Shown here piece by piece: positions 3,240-21,750 of a DNA stretch of 45,003 bases. The first letter of the stretch is position 1. Each line of letters starts with the position of its first letter. This DNA is from an uncultured archaeon (GTDB taxonomy: Archaea > Aenigmatarchaeota > Aenigmatarchaeia > CG10238-14 > CAZWBF01), in NCBI GenBank assembly GCA_964632185.1, contig CAZWBF010000002.1:1-45003 (forward strand), given 5' to 3'. Below the pieces are notes generated by a model, which saw nothing but the letters and a program-made list of their open reading frames with translations, was not told the DNA's origin and searched no databases. Both the position numbers and the translations under genes were made by a program.

Positions 3240-3331
3240 GGGCCGGTAGCTCAGCCAGGTTAGAGCAACGGTCTTATAAGGCCACTGAGCATAAAAACCG
3301 TAGGTCGTGGGTTCAAATCCCACCCGGCCCA
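3240..3331 (+). tRNA. tRNA-Ile (anticodon UAU) with a 17-nt intron at the canonical 37/38 site; no encoded CCA
   Basis: Manual cloverleaf: acceptor GGGCCGG/CCGGCCC, D arm GCTC-AGCCAGGTTA-GAGC, anticodon stem ACGGT/ACCGT, T arm GTGGG-TTCAAAT-CCCAC. There are 24 nt between the anticodon-stem halves (CTTATA[AGGCCACTGAGCATAAA]A). Confidence 0.8.
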
Positions 3332-11979: not shown

Positions 11980-12324
11980 TTAAGTCTCCTCTTGTGTTAT
12001 TGGTTTCATTCCAATTTTATATCCGGTTATTCTGCTTCCAAACTTTGGATGTGTGATTATACTCCATTTCAGGTACCCATAATAGCAAAGTATTCTTAAA
12101 TCTTCTAATAATAGTAGTGAGGTATATCTAAGAGACCCTTCTCCAAAATCATCATAAAGAGATGGAGCATAATTTTTGACTGCATCAACAATTATGCCAT
12201 AAGAGACAAACATATCTTTTGGTAGGTGTTCATTTAAAATTTCCCATAACTTAATTTGTCTTTCATTTAACTCGGCAGATAAAATTTTCAAAGCAATTTT
12301 TTCGACTAAATTCAAAACTATCAC
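11980..12324 (-). CDS. hypothetical protein inserted between rps12 and rps7; possible winged-helix fold
   Basis: 114-codon ORF. Its GTG overlaps the S12 TGA, or an in-frame TTG at 12315 lies 5 nt after GAGGTGA. It ends 1 nt before the S7 ATG. The helix/helix/beta-hairpin pattern (..[32 protein letters not shown]) resembles a wHTH wing. Confidence 0.5.
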
Positions 12325-13454: not shown

Positions 13455-14585
13455 TTATTCCTCTTCAAATTTCATTATCAAATCAAACATTCCAGTACCA
13501 CTAGGAACGACTTGACCTATCATCACATTTTCAAATATTCCATTAAAGTTATCAACTTCATTTTTTAATGATGCTCTAACCAAATGCTTTATAGTTTCTT
13601 CAAAACCAGCTCTTGCCAAAACAGAAACTTTGGAACCAGCAACACCATATCTACCTATAGGGCTAATCTTCCCTCTAAATGTCATTATATCTGCAACTAA
13701 AATTATATGCCTTAGATCAACATCTATTGCTTGTTGTTGAATTGTATTTAAAACTTCTTCTATTATTAAATTCCTTGCAGCTTCTATTCCAAAAATCTTT
13801 TCTATTTCATAAATGTTGTTTGATAAAACTTTATTTTCATCCACTTCCTTCAATTTCATAATTTCTTCTAAGTTGCTTCCAATTGTTTCAACTACCCATT
13901 CGTTATTCTCTTTCTTAACTAAAGCATTCTCTATTCCTTTAATTCCACTAATACTCAAATCCAAAACTTTTCTTTTCAATTTTTGAAGTTCAGTTATGCT
14001 AACCTCTTCTTTTGGTAAAATAACTATCAAATCTTTTCTACTTCTTACTTTCACGTCTTTTATTTCTTTTTTTATTTTTTCAATCACTGAGCTAGTTTTT
14101 CTTTTGTCAATTAATTCAACTTCTAAACAACCTTCACTCAAATTAATTGAAATTCCTGAAATTAAATGAATTAACTTTCTTTCAATTATTTTTTCAGCAA
14201 ATCGGGTTGCTTCTTTTTCAGTATTATACTCCTTTTTCAAAAATATAGTCATTGTTGAAATATTTGGCTCTTTTCTTGCGTCAAACAATTCAATTAATCT
14301 TGGTAATCCTTGGGTTACTTTTACACCAACTGTTCCTGCAACATGGTAAGTACGCATAGTCATTTGAGTACTTGGTTCAGAAATGCTTTGGGCTGCTATT
14401 ATTCCAATCGCTTCTCCAGGCTCAAAAGAACTCTTCAAATATTCTTTTTTTACCTCAGCTTCTAACTTTGATATTTCTTCCTTTTTTAATCTAAATTTTT
14501 CCGCAACTTTCAATATTTCTTTTCTAATATTTTCTGGAAGTTCAACTTCCAATTTTGAATATTCTTTTTGCAATATTTTCGACAT
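13455..14585 (-). CDS. rpoA2: DNA-directed RNA polymerase subunit A''
   Basis: 376 aa with [28 protein letters not shown] (trigger-loop region) and [19 protein letters not shown] lies upstream. Confidence 0.93.
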
Positions 14586-17500
14586 CTATACCCTCCTTTT
14601 TAATTTTGCTTGGGTCCAAATTATCTTCTCCAGCAGTAAATTGAATTATATTTTTACCAGAGTCCCTTACAGTTCCATCATACTCAACTTTTAAATCTTG
14701 GAGAGCTCCGATCAATCTTCTTTCCATATATCCAGAATGCCTAGTTCTTAAACTTTTATCCATTAAATTCTCTCTTGAATTCATAGCATCGAAGAAAAAT
14801 TCAAAAGGAGATAATCCTTGTCTGAAACCTTTTGGAACAAAACCTTTTGCCTCTAAACTTATATCACCAACTTTAAAATGAGGGAATGTTCTTCTATAAT
14901 AACCTCTTTTTATTCTTTCTTCCATTATCATTTCTTGTCCAATTAAAGTTGAAATTTGCATAAAGTTTACTATTCCTCCTCTTGCACCACTTAGCATCAT
15001 AGCTAAAACGTTATTAAACCTTATATTTTCAGAAAGTAATTCACCAACCCTAGTAACTAATGAGCTTATTTTCCTTTTAATTAAAGTTTCTAAAGTTTCT
15101 TCTAAAGTTCTACCAACCATAATTTTTAATTTTCCACTTTCATACTCGTTTATTAGTTCGTAAACCTCTTTTCTCGTTTTCTCTATTAAGCTATTAATTT
15201 CTTTTTTCAGATCCTCTGGTAAATCTTGATCAGCAATACTTATGCTAAATCCATAAAGAGTCAAAAATTCTATTCCTAATTTTGTTATTTTTTGTAGAAA
15301 ATCTTTAACAAATTCGCTACCATATAGCTTTTCCATTTCATCTATTATCTTACCACCCTCAGCACCAACTGCATTTTTATCAATTGCACCATATAACAAT
15401 TTTCCATCTTTTATTACAACATAAGTGTCAGATTCTAAAACATGTTTACATTTTTCTTTCTTGCATTTTCTACAACCAACATATGCTTTTGTTTTAAATT
15501 CTATGTTAAAATCTTTTGGTAAAAACAGGCTAAATATTTCTTTCCCAGTCATAAATGCTTTTTTTGGTATTTCCATATCTTTATCAACACTTCTTATCAA
15601 ATGAACAAACTCTTTTCTTGAAAATTTCTTTTGACCCAAAGTTAAAAGATATAGACCAGTTATATGGTCACGCATCGCACCAACTATTGGCCCTGAAAAC
15701 CTAGGACTTCTCAAATGTTTGATTACATTCATTAAAATTTTTGCTTCTGCTTGTGCCTCTTCAGTTTGCGGTATATGCAAATTCATTTCGTCTCCATCAA
15801 AATCTGCATTATAAGGAATGCAACTGCATAAATTCAATCTAAATGTTTTGAATGGCATTACTCTAACTTTATGTGCCATCATACTCATTCTATGCAGACT
15901 TGGTTGCCTATTGAATAAAGCTACATCTCCATTTATCAAATGCCTTTCAACTATATATCCAACTGTTATCTCTTTTGCTATCTCTTCCTTATTTTCTTCT
16001 GTTATCTTTTTTCTTCTTCCATCAGGCCTTATAACATAATTCGCACCAGGCCAAGTTTTTGGCCCATTTAATATTAAACTTTTTAAGAAATCTATATTGT
16101 TTTCATTTACTCTTACAGGAATAGTTAATTCCATTGCAATTCTTTCTGGCACACCTACTTCATCTATATCGATTAAAGGGTCTGGCGAAATAACTGTTCT
16201 GGCTGAAAAATTCACTCTTTTTCCAGCCAAGTTACCTCTAAATCTTCCTTCTTTTGTTTTTAATCTTTGAGATAAAGTTTTTAAAGCTCTTCCAGACCTA
16301 TGCCTAGCTGGAGGTACTCCTGTAAGTTCGTTATCAAAATAAGTTGCCACATGATATTGTAAAAGTTCCCAAAGGTCTTCTATTATGAAATCTGGTGCAC
16401 CCAACTCAATATTTTCCCTTAATCTATCGTTAATTCTAACAATATCAACTAACTTATGAGTTAAATCATCTTCTGACCTTTCTCCTGTTTCTAAAGTAAT
16501 TGAAGGCCTAACAGTTACAGGAGGAATTGGAAGTAAAGTTATTACAAGCCACTCAGGCCTAAATCCTTTAAGACCTAAAAGATTCAATTCTTCATCCTCA
16601 ATTTTTTCTAATCTTTCTCTTATCTGTATTTGGTTTAATATTTTATTTCCTTCTATTATTGTGTATGGCTTCAAAAATTTCAAGTTCTTTTGCTCAGCTT
16701 TACAGTACGGACACTTCTTTAAAACTTTTCTTATAGCTTCTTTAACCGAAATTTTTCCTTCTTTAAGTTTTTCAACAGTTTTTTCATCAAGTAACAATCT
16801 ACTACATTTCCTACAAAAACATTTTAAAAGAGTAAATATTGTTTTTGCATAATGAACATGAATTACTGGTTTTGTTAATTCTAAATAACCAAAATGGCCA
16901 TAACATTCACCAACTCCTCCTCCACAAGTTCTACATTTTATACCAGGATCGACAACCCCTAATCTAGGATCCATTAATCCTCCTTCGATTGGATAACCCT
17001 CTTGATCATATAAATCTATCTTTGTAATTTTTGCAGAGCTCATTTTCTTTACCATTTCTGGACTTAAAACAGTAAAAACAATTCTTTCAACTTTTGGCAT
17101 TTCTTCAGAAATAACTATTTTTGGATAAATTAGCATACTCTTTAATTCCTCAATCATTAGTTTGAAAGCGTAACTCATTTCAATAATCGAAATTTTTGAT
17201 TCACCACAAACTGGACAATAATATTTCTTTTTAATTTTATCATAAATTGCAAATAATCCACACTCATTACATATAGGAATAGCAGCTTTATCAGAACTAA
17301 ACCTTTCTTTCAAAACTAGAGAAGCGCCATGAGCAATTAAGCAATCTTTTTCCATTTCCCCTAATCTTAATCCTCCTTCTTTACTTCTTCCTTCTGTTGG
17401 TTGTTTAGTTAGTAAAGTTACTGGTCCTCTAGACCTCGCATGGATTTTATTCGAAACCAAATGATCAAGTTTTTGATAAAAGCAAATTCCTATGAAAGTA

Positions 17501-18888
17501 GTTTGGGGCATTCCTGTTCTTCCCTCATACATTGTTTCTGTTCCATCTTCACTATATCCAAATTCTTTCAATCTCTTTCTTAATTCATCTTCTTTTACAG
17601 GGTCAAATGGCTGTGAATAAATTATTTCCCCAGAAAGAGCTGCAACCTTTCCAGCCATAATTTCTAGTAATTGACCTACGGTCATTCGGGTTGGTAAGGA
17701 ATGTGGATTAAATAGTAAATCTGGTACAGTTCCCTCTTCAGTAAATGGTAAATCTTCTGCTGGGGCAATTAAACCTATTACTCCTTTTTGTCCATGTCTA
17801 GAAGCAAATTTATCCCCAATTTCTGGTATTTTCAAATCTCTTACAACAACTTTAACTAATTTTGTTCCATCAACTGTTTGCGTTATAAAAACTCTATCAA
17901 CAATTCCTTTATCACCATGTCTTAAAGTTACGGAAGTTTCTCTTATATTTTCAATTCCAGTAATAAATTGATCCATCGCACCAAGGAAGCGTAAAGGTGA
18001 AATTCTTCCTATCAAAACATCATCAGAATTTACTTTCGTCTCTGGATTTACAATTCCGTCTTCAGGTAAATGTTTATATGCATCTTCGCCAGCATAACCC
18101 CTTACTCCAGGCTTAGGAATACCGATTATGTCTTCTTGCCCGCCCATATACCTCTTTTCTTCAGCTTCGTAAGTTCTATACATTATGCTCCAGAATAAAC
18201 CTCTTTCTATTGAAGCCTTATTAAATACTAAAGCATCTTCCATATTATATCCTAAATAACTACCAAGTGCGATTACAACATTTGAACCTGCAGGATGTTC
18301 TTCTACCTTCAAAATTTTATGAGAAAATGTTTGTACGAGAGGGACTTGAGAATAAACTAAAATATTAGATTTTGTATCTACTCTTAGTAAAAAGTTAGAA
18401 GAAAAAACACCTATAGCTTGCCCATGCATTTTTGCACCATAATTTACTCTATCTCCTCTATCAAATTCTGCATAAGGAATATGACTACTAGAAAGACCTA
18501 AAATTAAAGAAGGATGAATTTCAAGATGAGTATGCTCATTTGTCAAATCTTCTTCTCTTAAAGCAATATATGCATTTTCCTCTTCTTCTGCATCTAAATA
18601 TTCAATTATTCCATTTTTTATTAAATCGTCCCATTTCCATTCTCCTCTCTTCAATTTTTCTATATGTTCCTCTTTTAATTTTGGCTTTCCATTTTCAACT
18701 ATTATTAAAGGTCTCCTAACTCTTCCAGATTCTGTTGAAATATTTATTATATCTAGATGCTTATGCCAAGCTATATTTACTTGGTCTGAGATTAAGCCTA
18801 ACCTTCTTCTTTCCCTTATAGTTTTAACTATTTTTTCTGGATTTTCCGTTTTTCCAATATATCTACCGTCTAAAAATATTGAAGTCAT
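14542..18888 (-). CDS. single ORF encoding RNA polymerase subunit B' (aa 1-596, nt 18888-17101) fused in frame to subunit A' (aa 597-1448, nt 17100-14542)
   Basis: The B' part carries [13 protein letters not shown], the [10 protein letters not shown]-type motif and a C-terminal Zn ribbon CNECG..CPVCG. The A' part carries a Zn site [32 protein letters not shown] and the catalytic [10 protein letters not shown]. The junction ...[24 protein letters not shown] has no stop codon. Confidence 0.9.
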
Positions 18889-20360
18889 TTCAATACCTCC
18901 ATTATATTTTTCAAACTTTTTTCATCTGCACCCTTCGTAACTTCAGCCATTAAAGCTAAATATTTTCTTAATCCAATAGTTGCACCTTCTGGAGTTTCAC
19001 TTGGACATAATTTACCCCAATGCGTAGGATGTAATTCCCTAGCTTCAAAATGTTCTTGCGTAGAAGTTAATGGTGATAAAACATTTCTCATATGAGTTAA
19101 TGTTTTTAAATAATTTGCTCTTTCCAATCTTTGACTTACACCAGTTCTTCCTCCAACCCATGTTCCTATGGCTAAAGCTGAAACAATTTGATTTGTTAAA
19201 ACGTTTGATTCAACTATTGCTTGTAAAGGTGGTAATCTTCCCCTTTTTGTTAGCTTTTGATAATTGTAAGTTATTCTAGTTATCAAACCCCATTTCCCAA
19301 GTAAAATTGATCTTAATAGAATTTCTAAAAGATCTCCAGCCAATCTTAATCTTTTATTAGAGTAATGGTCTAAATCATCTTCTTCAATCTTTCCCAAATG
19401 CAATTTAATTATTTTCTCTATTGCTTTACATAAAAATAATGCTTTTTCTAATCTGTTTGTTGAATCTTGGCCTAAATGAGGTAACAAATATCTATCTATT
19501 AAGCGGGTTGCTCTTTCGATTTGATATTCTTTTTGTGGAATTTTTATATGTCTACCAATAGCTTCTAAAGCTTCTTCTTGAGTTGTGACTTCGCATTCGT
19601 ATATATTCGAATAAAATTCTTCCAAAATTTCTTCATCTGTTGAAATTGCAGCAATTATTTCATTATCTTTTATCAATCCCAAAGCTTTGATTAATATTAT
19701 AATTGGTAATCTTGTAACATTTGCAAAACTTATAAAAATCATTCCATCATTCCTTCTTTCAATTAAATGTCTTTGAATATATCCTTCCTTTTCAGAATGA
19801 ATTCTTGCAATTTCGGTAATGCTACCAGTATCTTCTTTTGTGACAATTATTTTGTTTTGGGCAATTTCCTCAACCATTACCAAAATCCTTTCAGTTCCAT
19901 TTACTATGAAATATCCACCTGGGTCATCCGGGTCTTCACCCGCTTCAATTAGCTCATTCCTATCCATTTTGGATAGAGGACAAATCTTTGATTTAACCAT
20001 AACTGGCAAATCACCAAAATTAACCATAACACTCTCGCTTTCAATATTGTTAAGAATTGGTGTCATTTCAACAAACATTGGAGCAGCATAAGTTAAATTT
20101 CTTAATCTTGCTTCCATAGGTAAAATTTCTCTTACACTTCCATCAGCTTCTTTAATAGAAGGTCCACCTATCATAAACTTTCCAAGCTTTATTCTTAACT
20201 CTCCTATATCTGGCACTTCTGGTTTTATCTCTCCAATTTCCTTAAAAATTTTAGGAATCCTTCGAGTGATGAAATCATTGTAAGACTCTATTTGAAATCT
20301 AACTAATCCTTTTTCTTTAACAAAAGTGTTAAGTAACTCTAAAAATATTTTATTATTCAT
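18885..20360 (-). CDS. rpoB2: DNA-directed RNA polymerase subunit B'' (N-terminal half of split B)
   Basis: 491 aa with typical N-terminal segments of subunit B (SYNDFI, GYFIVNGTERIL, LSPLTSTQEHFEARELHPTHWG). It overlaps B' by ATGA. Confidence 0.93.
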   Translation of the reverse strand: MNNKIFLELLNTFVKEKGLVRFQIESYNDFITRRIPKIFKEIGEIKPEVPDIGELRIKLGKFMIGGPSIKEADGSVREILPMEARLRNLTYAAPMFVEMTPILNNIESESVMVNFGDLPVMVKSKICPLSKMDRNELIEAGEDPDDPGGYFIVNGTERILVMVEEIAQNKIIVTKEDTGSITEIARIHSEKEGYIQRHLIERRNDGMIFISFANVTRLPIIILIKALGLIKDNEIIAAISTDEEILEEFYSNIYECEVTTQEEALEAIGRHIKIPQKEYQIERATRLIDRYLLPHLGQDSTNRLEKALFLCKAIEKIIKLHLGKIEEDDLDHYSNKRLRLAGDLLEILLRSILLGKWGLITRITYNYQKLTKRGRLPPLQAIVESNVLTNQIVSALAIGTWVGGRTGVSQRLERANYLKTLTHMRNVLSPLTSTQEHFEARELHPTHWGKLCPSETPEGATIGLRKYLALMAEVTKGADEKSLKNIMEVLK

Positions 20361-20385
20361 CCAACACCTTTTTTAAATTTTTTAC

Positions 20386-20452: not shown

Positions 20453-20542
20453 CGCCCCGAGCGGGATTCGAACCCGCGTCATTCGCCGGTTTAAACCTCA
20501 GGCGTGACAGGCCTGTATCCTAGGCCGCTAGACGATCGGGGC
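20453..20542 (-). tRNA. tRNA-Asp (GUC) with a ~16-17 nt insertion between the anticodon stem and the variable/T region; no encoded CCA
   Basis: Minus strand: GCCCCGA TC GTCT AGCGGCCTA GGAT A CAGGC CTGTCAC GCCTG [AGGTTTAAACCGGCGAA]TGAC GCGGG TTCGAAT CCCGC TCGGGGC G. Every arm is canonical except for 21 nt where 4-5 are expected. Confidence 0.75.
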
Positions 20543-20635: not shown

Positions 20636-21292
20636 ATGAAAGATGAAAAATTAGCCTATTGGATAGGAGTTGTACATGCTGATGGATCCATCGTAAAGCG
20701 CAGATTTAAGAATAGAATATGTTTACAAACACTGGTCTCTCTGCAAGTTTCACCAAAATCAAAAGAAATGCTTCTTAAGTTTAAAGAAATAAGTGAAGAA
20801 AAATTGGGAAGAAAAGTTAAAATTGTAAAATTAAAAACCAGGAACATTTTAATGTATCAGATAGGTATATCAGAATTCAGAGATAAGTTTGATGAATTAG
20901 GTTTAAAAGAGAAATATGTTATACCTAACTGGATTTTGAATAAAGATTCTCTGCTTGGCAGTTATTTAGCTGGAATAATAGATGGAGATGGAAATATCCG
21001 CATAAAAAGAAAAAAGTATCCACAATGTGTAATCAGAATAACTGGAAGTTTTTCGCTCTCTAAACTTTACAAATTAATCAAAAGGAGGTTAAAATGGAGT
21101 ATGCAATTTGTAAAAAGGCAAAGAGAAAGTAAACTTTGTGGGAGAAAAATTAAAGGAAAGTAGTATGAACTCGAATTTTATGTGTCAAATAAAAATCGTT
21201 TATTTATAGAAAAGTATGTCTTACCTCATTTAGCTATAACATATAAAAGAGTTGCATTAACAAACTTCATAAATAAGAGATTTGCTCAATGA
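20636..21292 (+). pseudogene. free-standing double-motif LAGLIDADG homing-endonuclease-like gene interrupted by an in-frame TAG at 21161-21163
   Basis: Motif 1 is LAYWIGVVHADGSI and motif 2 is LGSYLAGIIDGDGNI. The ORF stops at TAG after 175 codons, but the same frame continues for 42 codons (YELEFYVSNKNRLFIEKYVLPHLAITYKRVALTNFINKRFAQ) to a TGA at 21290-21292. That continuation would complete the second domain. Confidence 0.7.
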
Positions 21293-21427
21293 TAACACCT
21301 TTTGGATACTTCTTGTGCTACTGGTTCAGCTATTGGGAAAAAAGTAAGTAAGCTTCTCAGAGTTTTAGTAAATAGTTAAAAGTAGATTGAAGTGTTTCAA
21401 AGAAACTTTCCGAACGAAAGTAAAATA

Positions 21428-21545
21428 GTTGGCAGCGTCGTGAATTTCCCGTGGCATGCACCACAGTACTCTTCACATCGCGGGAAGGCTTAACTTCCGG
21501 GTTCGGAATGGGACCGGGTGTTTCCCCTCCGCTTTGGCCGCCAAC
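21428..21545 (-). rRNA. rrf: 5S rRNA
   Basis: The minus strand reads GTTGGCGGCCAAAGCGGAGGGGAAACACCCGGTCCCATTCCGAACCCGGAAGTTAAGCCTTCCCGCGATG...GCTGCCAAC. It has the universal CCGAAC...GAAGTTAAGC core and terminal helix I pairing, and it forms a GC-rich island in AT-rich DNA. Confidence 0.9.
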
Positions 21546-21616: not shown

Positions 21617-21750
21617 TCCCCGCCGGGAGATTTGAACTCCCAACCTTCCGGTATTAACCGAGCATCGGCTCCGAGCAAGTGCCAATGCACTCGCCTTTGG
21701 CCTCTCAATACCGATACAGCCGGACGCTCTACCAGTTGAGCTAGGCGGGG
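21617..21750 (-). tRNA. tRNA-Tyr (GUA) with a 61-nt intron in the anticodon loop; no encoded CCA
   Basis: Minus strand: CCCCGCC TA GCTC AACTGGTA GAGC G TCCGG CTGTAT[61 nt]A CCGGA AGGTT GGGAG TTCAAAT CTCCC GGCGGGG A. The C1:G72 pair plus A73 is the archaeal/eukaryal Tyr identity set. Confidence 0.75.

Follow-up and report, generated by a model that had tools for sequence, protein, structure and literature searches.

A fused gene for RNA polymerase subunits B' and A' in Aenigmatarchaeota, apparently undescribed in archaea

The subunit composition of archaeal RNA polymerase (RNAP) is textbook material, and the splits of its two large subunits, A into A'/A'' and B into B''/B', are widely used as a phylogenetic character. 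The locus described in this manuscript raises the question of whether the boundary between B and A can itself be lost, with B' and A' made as one polypeptide. It lies in a stretch of 45,003 nucleotides from an uncultured archaeon of the Aenigmatarchaeota (GenBank assembly GCA_964632185.1, contig CAZWBF010000002.1, positions 1 to 45,003), which is called the window throughout. An earlier reading of the letters alone, the original prediction, had proposed one uninterrupted B'-A' frame of 1448 codons at 14542-18888 and a product of ~165 kDa. The ORF (open reading frame) list and the translation confirmed this frame, which is on the minus strand, starts with ATG, encodes 1448 amino acids and contains zero internal stops. 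The calculated mass of the fusion is 164.6 kDa, of which the B' part accounts for 67.2 kDa and the A' part for 97.4 kDa. The fused gene and its parts are listed below.

14542-18888, minus strand: fused rpoB'-rpoA' ORF, 1448 codons plus stop, predicted 164.6 kDa (ORF list, Pfam, NCBIfam).
17101-18888, minus strand: B' (Rpo2C) module, residues 1-596, with Rpb2 domains 4-7 including the C-terminal Zn-ribbon/clamp part (TIGR03670, Pfam).
14542-17100, minus strand: A' (Rpo1N) module, residues 597-1448, with the catalytic NADFDGD motif (TIGR02390, NF006336, Pfam).
17092-17112, minus strand: junction with linker (residues 593-599, ISEEMPK), lacking both a stop codon and a Shine-Dalgarno (SD) sequence (sequence, alignment).

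The B' module was matched by TIGR03670 (rpoB_arch) at residues 4-596, which correspond to model positions 1-598 of 599, with 876.2 bits against a cut-off of 811. Its Pfam domains follow the order PF04566, PF04567, PF00562 and PF04560 at residues 4-592, and the C-terminal zinc motif CxxC...CxxC is present as ICNECG...YCPVCG, with cysteine columns that are invariant in alignments of relatives. The A' module was matched by TIGR02390 (rpoA1) at residues 599-1439 (1173.5 bits, cut-off 1042.55) and by NF006336 at residues 598-1444 (1194 bits, cut-off 819). In Pfam, Rpb1 domains 1-5 follow directly after the Rpb2 domains, domain 5 being represented by its N-terminal part only; the NADFDGD motif that binds the catalytic Mg is present, and the cysteine and histidine columns of the N-terminal zinc-binding clamp core are invariant. 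Since the NCBIfam matches cover residues 4-596 and 598-1444, both modules are full length and abut directly. A free-standing B' would carry its own stop, and none lies between residues 596 and 597. Likewise, A' has no translation start of its own, SD-led or leaderless, because no SD precedes Met597 and this Met is missing in most orthologues.

The same join was found in many relatives. The best 120 matches in a search of 5.8 billion protein clusters (90% identity) were examined, and B and A' domains occurred in one protein in all of them. Length was 1417-1932 amino acids in 115 of the 120, identity to the window protein ran from 77% down to 55%, and the fusion is conserved in at least 115 clusters. 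Two size classes were seen, one of 1417-1461 amino acids, which is B'-A' as in the window, and one of 1909-1932 amino acids, in which an unsplit B is joined to A'. Where the source names them, the fused matches are nearly always from Candidatus Aenigmatarchaeota, and the product name is just "subunit A'". Thus, the covalent B'-A' chain that had been predicted for this organism was supported, but it is phylum-wide and not limited to one organism. The accompanying claim, that B stays split as B''/B' and A as A'/A'', holds in the window, whereas the second form elsewhere has an unsplit B fused to A' (about 1910-1930 amino acids).

A genome scan with one genome per GTDB species gave 80 loci from 481 candidates, ranked by a single tblastn high-scoring segment pair (HSP). 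Inside the Aenigmatarchaeota clade 24 of 34 loci were fused, and the fused ones are titled Aenigmatarchaeota or "uncultured archaeon." Outside the clade all 46 loci were unfused; these are titled Woesearchaeota, Nanoarchaeota/Nanoarchaeia or Pacearchaeota, or have uninformative or doubtful titles. In the Woesearchaeota, Nanoarchaeota and Pacearchaeota loci B' ends in ...K(Y/F)-stop and the Met of A' follows 0-20 codons later. A comparison of rpoB'/rpoA' junctions in related genomes had been proposed as a check on the prediction, and in it the fusion is shared by 24 species-level genomes in addition to the at least 115 clusters. When 1.84 billion cluster representatives (50% identity) were searched exhaustively by HMMER with a 360-residue query spanning the junction, one strong junction-spanning representative was returned, P0060 (499 bits). 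The other strong matches covered one half of the query, and besides P0060 only the distant P0181 and P0198 (34-35% identity) span the junction. On these comparisons the fusion is essentially confined to one clade.

Several further observations were made on these relatives, in which L numbers denote loci and P numbers proteins. The unsplit B is found in a sub-clade with the fused loci L017, L018, L022, L024 and L033, the unfused locus L019 and proteins P0084-P0115, in which B-A' has 1909-1932 amino acids. P0061 (1924 amino acids, 66% identical to the window) has the unsplit B-A' layout inside the crown group. The cistron boundaries along the B''-B'-A'-A'' string appear fluid in Aenigmatarchaeota. 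A' was in the same reading frame as B' in 80 of 80 loci, even with 1-20 codons and up to three stops between them; this universal arrangement is probably a ranking bias, as a tblastn HSP that runs through the stop scores best.

The two distant proteins are of other kinds. P0181 is encoded at 4732-11376 of L085 (Logan SRR24908257) as one ORF of 2214 amino acids made up of B (Rpb2 domains 1, 3, 6 and 7), A' and A''. Its A'/A'' part has Rpb1 domains 1-3 and a complete domain 5, and both large RNAP subunits would share one chain. The contig is compact, has 53% GC and an archaeal context (S19e, S12, S7, EF-2, FEN1, GatA/B). With a B-A' linker of about 16 residues this would be an independent fusion, and it is an unvalidated singleton with no close relatives in the 5.8 billion clusters. 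In P0198 (1665 amino acids; 10 contigs of up to 79 kb from JGI, Logan and ENA) Rpb1 domains 1-2 come after a full Rpb2-like B, identity across the junction is 35%, and the JGI name is "RNA polymerase II subunit RPB2." It may be a gene model from a eukaryote or a virus, or else a further fusion of independent origin. The titles of metagenome-assembled genomes look unreliable. For example, L012, which has a fused gene of the Aenigmatarchaeota type, is titled "uncultured bacterium," the title "uncultured Methanosarcinales archaeon" is attached to many loci of the Woesearchaeota cluster, and the fused protein P0063 is named Woesearchaeota. The titles of L020, L023, L031, L034 and others are among the doubtful ones.

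The junction itself was read on the minus strand, where 17130-17071 includes ATT TAT CCA AAA ATA GTT ATT TCT GAA GAA ATG CCA AAA GTT GAA, with the codon of Met597 at 17100-17098. The tail of B' runs into the N-terminus of A' without a stop codon, as had been claimed. The translation signals and the adjoining cistrons are as follows.

18895-18900, minus strand: SD GGAGGT, 6 nucleotides 5' of the ATG of the fused gene.
14590-14597, minus strand: SD AGGAGGGT, 5' of the ATG of A'', inside the 3' end of the fused ORF.
20365-20369, minus strand: SD-like AGGTG, 4 nucleotides 5' of the ATG of B''.
18885-20360, minus strand: rpoB'' (Rpo2N), 491 amino acids, separate cistron (NF007175, 578 bits against a cut-off of 355; Pfam Rpb2 domains 1-3).
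13455-14585, minus strand: rpoA'' (Rpo1C), 376 amino acids, separate cistron in another frame, assigned by Pfam Rpb1 domain 5 (profile positions 67-265) and by a TIGR02389 match of 386 bits, which is below the curated cut-off of 420.65 and formally short of this equivalog model.

The ATG of the fused gene overlaps the TGA stop of B'' as ATGA, rpoA'' overlaps the fused ORF by 44 nucleotides, and the SD ahead of S12 is AGGTGAT. Seven of the eight known cistrons of the window operon have an SD (hypothetical orf114 left out). The junction has none, as no SD-like motif occurs in the 25 nucleotides before Met597 (TCCAAAAATAGTTATTTCTGAAGAA). Inspection of the upstream sequences thus agreed with the original prediction, in which SDs preceded B', A'', B'' and S12 and none preceded the Met of A'.

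In the alignment of the 120 fused proteins the linker is variable, with 3-6 residues and indels, and follows ...IYPK(I/L)x(V/I); the 8-10 residues first suggested for it were an overestimate. Its columns are the most variable of the region (entropy 2.4-3.35 bits, against <1 bit in most flanking columns), and its flanks, the tail of B' and the A' start V/I-x-x-I-x-F-x-x-L-S-P, are highly conserved. The junction of the window aligns gap-free to those of the 119 other fused proteins and of 24 genomic loci. Met occupies the column of Met597 in 6 of the 120 proteins and the column of residue 599 in 10 of them, and the other fused proteins have E, G, L, T, S or a gap in these columns. Since most relatives have no junction Met, the alignment predicts that a separate A' is impossible by internal initiation in most of them and that the family is obligately single chain. 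A conserved internal start at the junction was also considered and rejected, as the Met is not conserved and has no SD.

Met597 is best read, from its position, as a relic of the A' start codon, because the A' start codon of unfused relatives such as L005, L001-type and L030 is at most one residue away. The same position is what lends some weight to the rival that survives best, in which the fused ORF is real but a substantial part of A' comes separately from an internal start at Met597, so that the cell would contain free as well as tethered A'. A Met is retained there in a minority of fused relatives, and archaea can initiate without an SD in some contexts. We consider this dual output unlikely for several reasons. 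First, the 25 nucleotides upstream hold nothing like the SD seen at nearly all cistrons of the operon. Secondly, the fused ORF contains 37 in-frame internal ATGs, so an ATG alone is uninformative. Third, E, G, L or a gap at this position in most fused relatives makes the family independent of the Met. Lastly, free A' would have no free B' as a partner, since B' has no stop codon.

A precedent for the join was found among known structures. The best PDB sequence match to the junction fragment is chain A of 3QQC, the recombinant clamp (rClamp) of P. furiosus (Martinez-Rucobo et al. 2011, PMC3094117). It was built from B 1053-1115, A' 3-318 and A'' 334-371 via short linkers, was soluble and correctly folded, bound Spt4/5 stoichiometrically, and was crystallised and solved at 3.3 A (PMC3094117). 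The alignment is gap-free across the junction (Pfu ...VIRPKLNLSE-GG-KVIGSIEFGILSP against the window), and the A' side of Pfu starts KVIGSIEF. In 3QQC two linker residues connect the C-terminus of B with A' residue 3, at the alignment columns where the natural junction lies, and identity to window residues 533-900 is 50%. However, 3QQC was made in the laboratory and covers just the clamp domain, whereas the natural subunit is full length, and it appends an A'' segment that the natural fused protein does not have. The rClamp precedent shows that a native clamp able to bind Spt4/5 tolerates such a join.

An AlphaFold2 model of window residues 533-900 (A2, from a 23-sequence alignment) had a predicted template modelling score of 0.73 and a predicted local distance difference test (pLDDT) of 85-88 across the junction. 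In it the tail of B' (strand 55-61) and the N-terminus of A' (strand 68-75) form a strand-turn-strand, and the top Foldseek match was 3QQC_A (E 3e-32, template modelling (TM) score 0.77/0.74, 367 columns). A2 is a clamp-shaped construct that replaced a differently cut fragment model, A1, which was disregarded. The linker is exposed at the hairpin turn of A2, where a protease could in principle cut a chain translated in one piece and restore B' and A'. Such a polyprotein is a poorer candidate still than dual output, given that the linker is only 3-6 residues, varies in length and sequence and has no conserved cleavage-like motif, and that 3QQC, the engineered counterpart of the join, is a stable single chain.

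As for a missing base or stop at the junction, which the original prediction had asked to be excluded, the intact fused gene is present on four other contigs (four samples, two assembly pipelines: ENA ERZ27248160 and ERZ27247988; Logan SRR7051295 and SRR7051275), whose protein differs from that of the window at two residues. Across the five assemblies, window included, 16 of 4347 positions vary, 14 of them third-position synonymous and 2 non-synonymous (E385D, T387I), and the ORF is intact in all five. Mostly synonymous variation in an intact ORF is the pattern expected for a functional gene under purifying selection. The window is near-identical to metagenomic contigs, is probably a metagenome assembly and is AT-rich in this region (about 31% GC), but a sequencing or assembly error that joined two ordinary genes through a missing base or a miscalled stop is effectively refuted, and was rejected, because five independent assemblies, which differ in sample and assembler, give the same result, the fusion recurs in more than 100 diverged orthologues obtained in many studies, and the two modules share one frame, with no indel when compared to unfused relatives.

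For these reasons we put the probability of a genuine fused gene translated as one chain at about 0.85. The covalent B'-A' polypeptide of the original prediction is supported by its recurrence in assemblies, its conservation, the absent junction Met in most relatives and 3QQC. We infer that the chain stays uncleaved in vivo and is incorporated in active RNAP. Several points weigh the other way. The fused chain is predicted from sequence, Aenigmatarchaeota are not, to our knowledge, in culture, and sequence alone is also compatible with post-translational cleavage. The Met that survives at the junction of the window leaves room for some SD-independent internal initiation. The first AlphaFold fragment, A1 (12 sequences), was poor, with a mean pLDDT of 61 and a Foldseek TM score of 0.26 to 3QQC. 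In addition, ten genomes of the clade are unfused, which makes the fusion dispensable, and some internal nodes of the tree described below are weak (38-60% bootstrap), so that the tree is approximate.

If B' and A' are indeed made as one chain, the ribosome would start at the SD-led ATG (18888) and read to 14542, producing one ~165 kDa chain in the order B' (Rpo2C), 3-6 residue linker, A' (Rpo1N). The join falls within the clamp. There the C-terminal strand of B is already a neighbour of the N-terminal strand of A', and the linker would form a hairpin turn while the enzyme folds as usual. The catalytic core would then consist of three large polypeptides, B'' (491 amino acids), B'-A' (1448 amino acids) and A'' (376 amino acids), with the B'-A' chain assembling with B'', A'' and the small subunits. 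The tether would force 1:1 synthesis and may aid the co-translational pairing of the two clamp halves.

The unfused members of the clade indicate how the fusion may have arisen. These ten loci are L005/L050, L011/L041, L019, L030, L027/L068 and L059/L072, and in eight of them (not L059 or L072) a single in-frame stop lies exactly at the junction. Five of the stop-bearing loci were read at the nucleotide level. In these an ATG or GTG follows 0-2 codons after the stop, and in most of them an SD is embedded in the last codons of B'. For example, the junction is AAA GAG GTA TGA AAG ATG in L005 and GAG GAG GCC GTA TAA ATG in L030; unfused Aenigmatarchaeota have GAGGT or AGGAGG plus ATG at the spot that matches the window junction. 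Recoding of the stop codon in these genomes was considered and rejected, as TGA, TAG and TAA all occur and each is then followed by an SD and an ATG or GTG. With an in-frame stop at the junction, a one-nucleotide change there suffices to fuse the genes. An ancestor of most Aenigmatarchaeota probably had rpoB' and rpoA' as abutting in-frame cistrons, a layout still seen in extant unfused relatives, and loss of the stop codon then merged them.

A neighbour-joining tree was built from concatenated B'+A' (81 taxa, 1415 columns, 100 bootstraps); it is a distance tree from RNAP itself and is approximate. The Aenigmatarchaeota clade was recovered in 100 of 100 bootstraps, with the window nested in the crown group and unfused lineages scattered among fused ones. 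For example, the unfused L019 is nested with the fused L017, L018 and L022 at 100% support. Fitch parsimony gave 5-7 state changes in every bootstrap replicate, a count that is itself approximate. Either the fusion was gained early and then reverted at least four times, or it was gained repeatedly. In both cases the fusion is evolutionarily cheap, and the repeated switching suggests that it is close to neutral.

On balance we lean towards a broader view, in which the two catalytic subunits of the Aenigmatarchaeota RNAP are covalently tethered via the clamp (as B'-A', or as B-A' where B is unsplit) across the phylum, a state unrecorded in Archaea. In this view the in-frame abutment of the cistrons lets single-nucleotide changes move a lineage from the tethered to the untethered form or back. 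More speculatively, low-level readthrough of the stop in unfused in-frame genomes may already give some tethered enzyme.

Besides Helicobacter and Wolinella, Wolbachia is a further example of a fusion of the bacterial subunits beta and beta'. An engineered beta-beta' fusion is functional in E. coli, and H. pylori tolerates splitting of its own. Helicobacter and Wolinella have an RpoB-RpoC (beta-beta') fusion (Zakharova et al. 1999, cited in PMC1557499), which according to PMC1557499 is made as a single polypeptide of ~2900 amino acids. The bacterial and archaeal cases are alike in that the second-largest subunit is joined head-to-tail to the largest via a lost intercistronic stop, with B/beta first, and in that a lineage-specific rare genomic change yields a single large polypeptide. 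In the window, too, the second-largest-subunit module precedes the largest-subunit module in one ORF. However, the archaeal fusion is an independent event in another domain of life. The models for bacterial beta/beta' fusions scored far below their cut-offs (NF007172, 339 bits against 5372; NF011417, 338 against 4632), so the resemblance is analogous and not one of family membership. Both B and A are split in this archaeon, and the fused chain therefore comprises no more than the C-terminal half of the former and the N-terminal two-thirds of the latter. The archaeal state is also homoplastic, with 5-7 switches, whereas the bacterial case is described as a single event. By analogy with Helicobacter and Wolinella, and in view of the repeated reversions, we expect the functional change to be small.

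Among archaea, a secondary A'-A'' fusion is known in Pacearchaeota, beside the A'/A'' and B''/B' splits (Da Cunha et al. 2017, PMC5484517). These variants and the fusion described here involve the same operon, with a cistron boundary gained or lost in the B''-B'-A'-A'' string, but the former lie within one subunit and B'-A' crosses the B/A boundary. No description of an archaeal B-A' fusion was found in the searchable full-text literature (subscription-only literature excluded), and a 2026 preprint on Aenigmarchaeal B'' sequences makes no mention of one. The claim that this layout is undescribed in archaea therefore holds as far as searchable literature goes. The B'-A' fusion is real, phylum-wide and, as it seems, undescribed in archaea; it is mechanistically unsurprising, and its functional consequence is probably modest. 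In the loci examined here, A' and A'' were themselves fused in one ORF of about 1171-1175 amino acids in L072 (1004-4516), which is titled Aenigmatarchaeota and has a separate B', and in L078 (4806-8330), which is titled Pacearchaeota.

A fusion across the B/A boundary is a new state in the character set of archaeal RNAP. For years, fused sequences have been in public databases, simply labelled "subunit A'" by annotation pipelines, and they can be mishandled by marker-gene workflows designed for COG0085 and COG0086 as separate proteins. As a rare genomic change the fusion marks Aenigmatarchaeota, but it is homoplastic and should be used with care. The fusion is nature's equivalent of the clamp fusion engineered for structural work, and among archaea it parallels the beta-beta' of Helicobacter. 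It offers a system in which to ask, for genome-reduced symbionts, if assembly or clamp dynamics change when the clamp halves are tethered. If the broader view is correct, the phylum is a natural experiment on whether clamp tethering matters.

The surroundings of the fused gene were also recorded. No 16S rRNA gene was found in the window. Three tRNA genes are over-long, at 90-134 nucleotides: 3240-3331 (plus strand), 20453-20542 (minus strand) and 21617-21750 (minus strand). They presumably contain introns; the 134-nucleotide tRNA at 21617-21750 was missed by ARAGORN, which also assigned no anticodon to the tRNA at 3240-3331. On the opposite strand, a short distance upstream of the RNAP operon, an ORF of 175 amino acids (20636-21163, plus strand) with weak matches to LAGLIDADG homing endonucleases (PF14528, E 1.6e-6; PF00961, E 3e-4) lies between tRNA-Asp (20453-20542) and the 5S rRNA (21427-21545). 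Downstream of rpoA'' are the genes for L30e, NusA, S12, S7 and EF-2. Between rps12 and rps7 lies an ORF of 114 codons (11980-12324, minus strand) with a GTG start, no SD and no Pfam match. It is also present in the same-species contigs L081 and L082. In 43 related loci the S12-S7 gap is only 3-55 nucleotides and holds nothing resembling this ORF, which appears to be an insertion specific to this species, in an operon that is otherwise very conserved.

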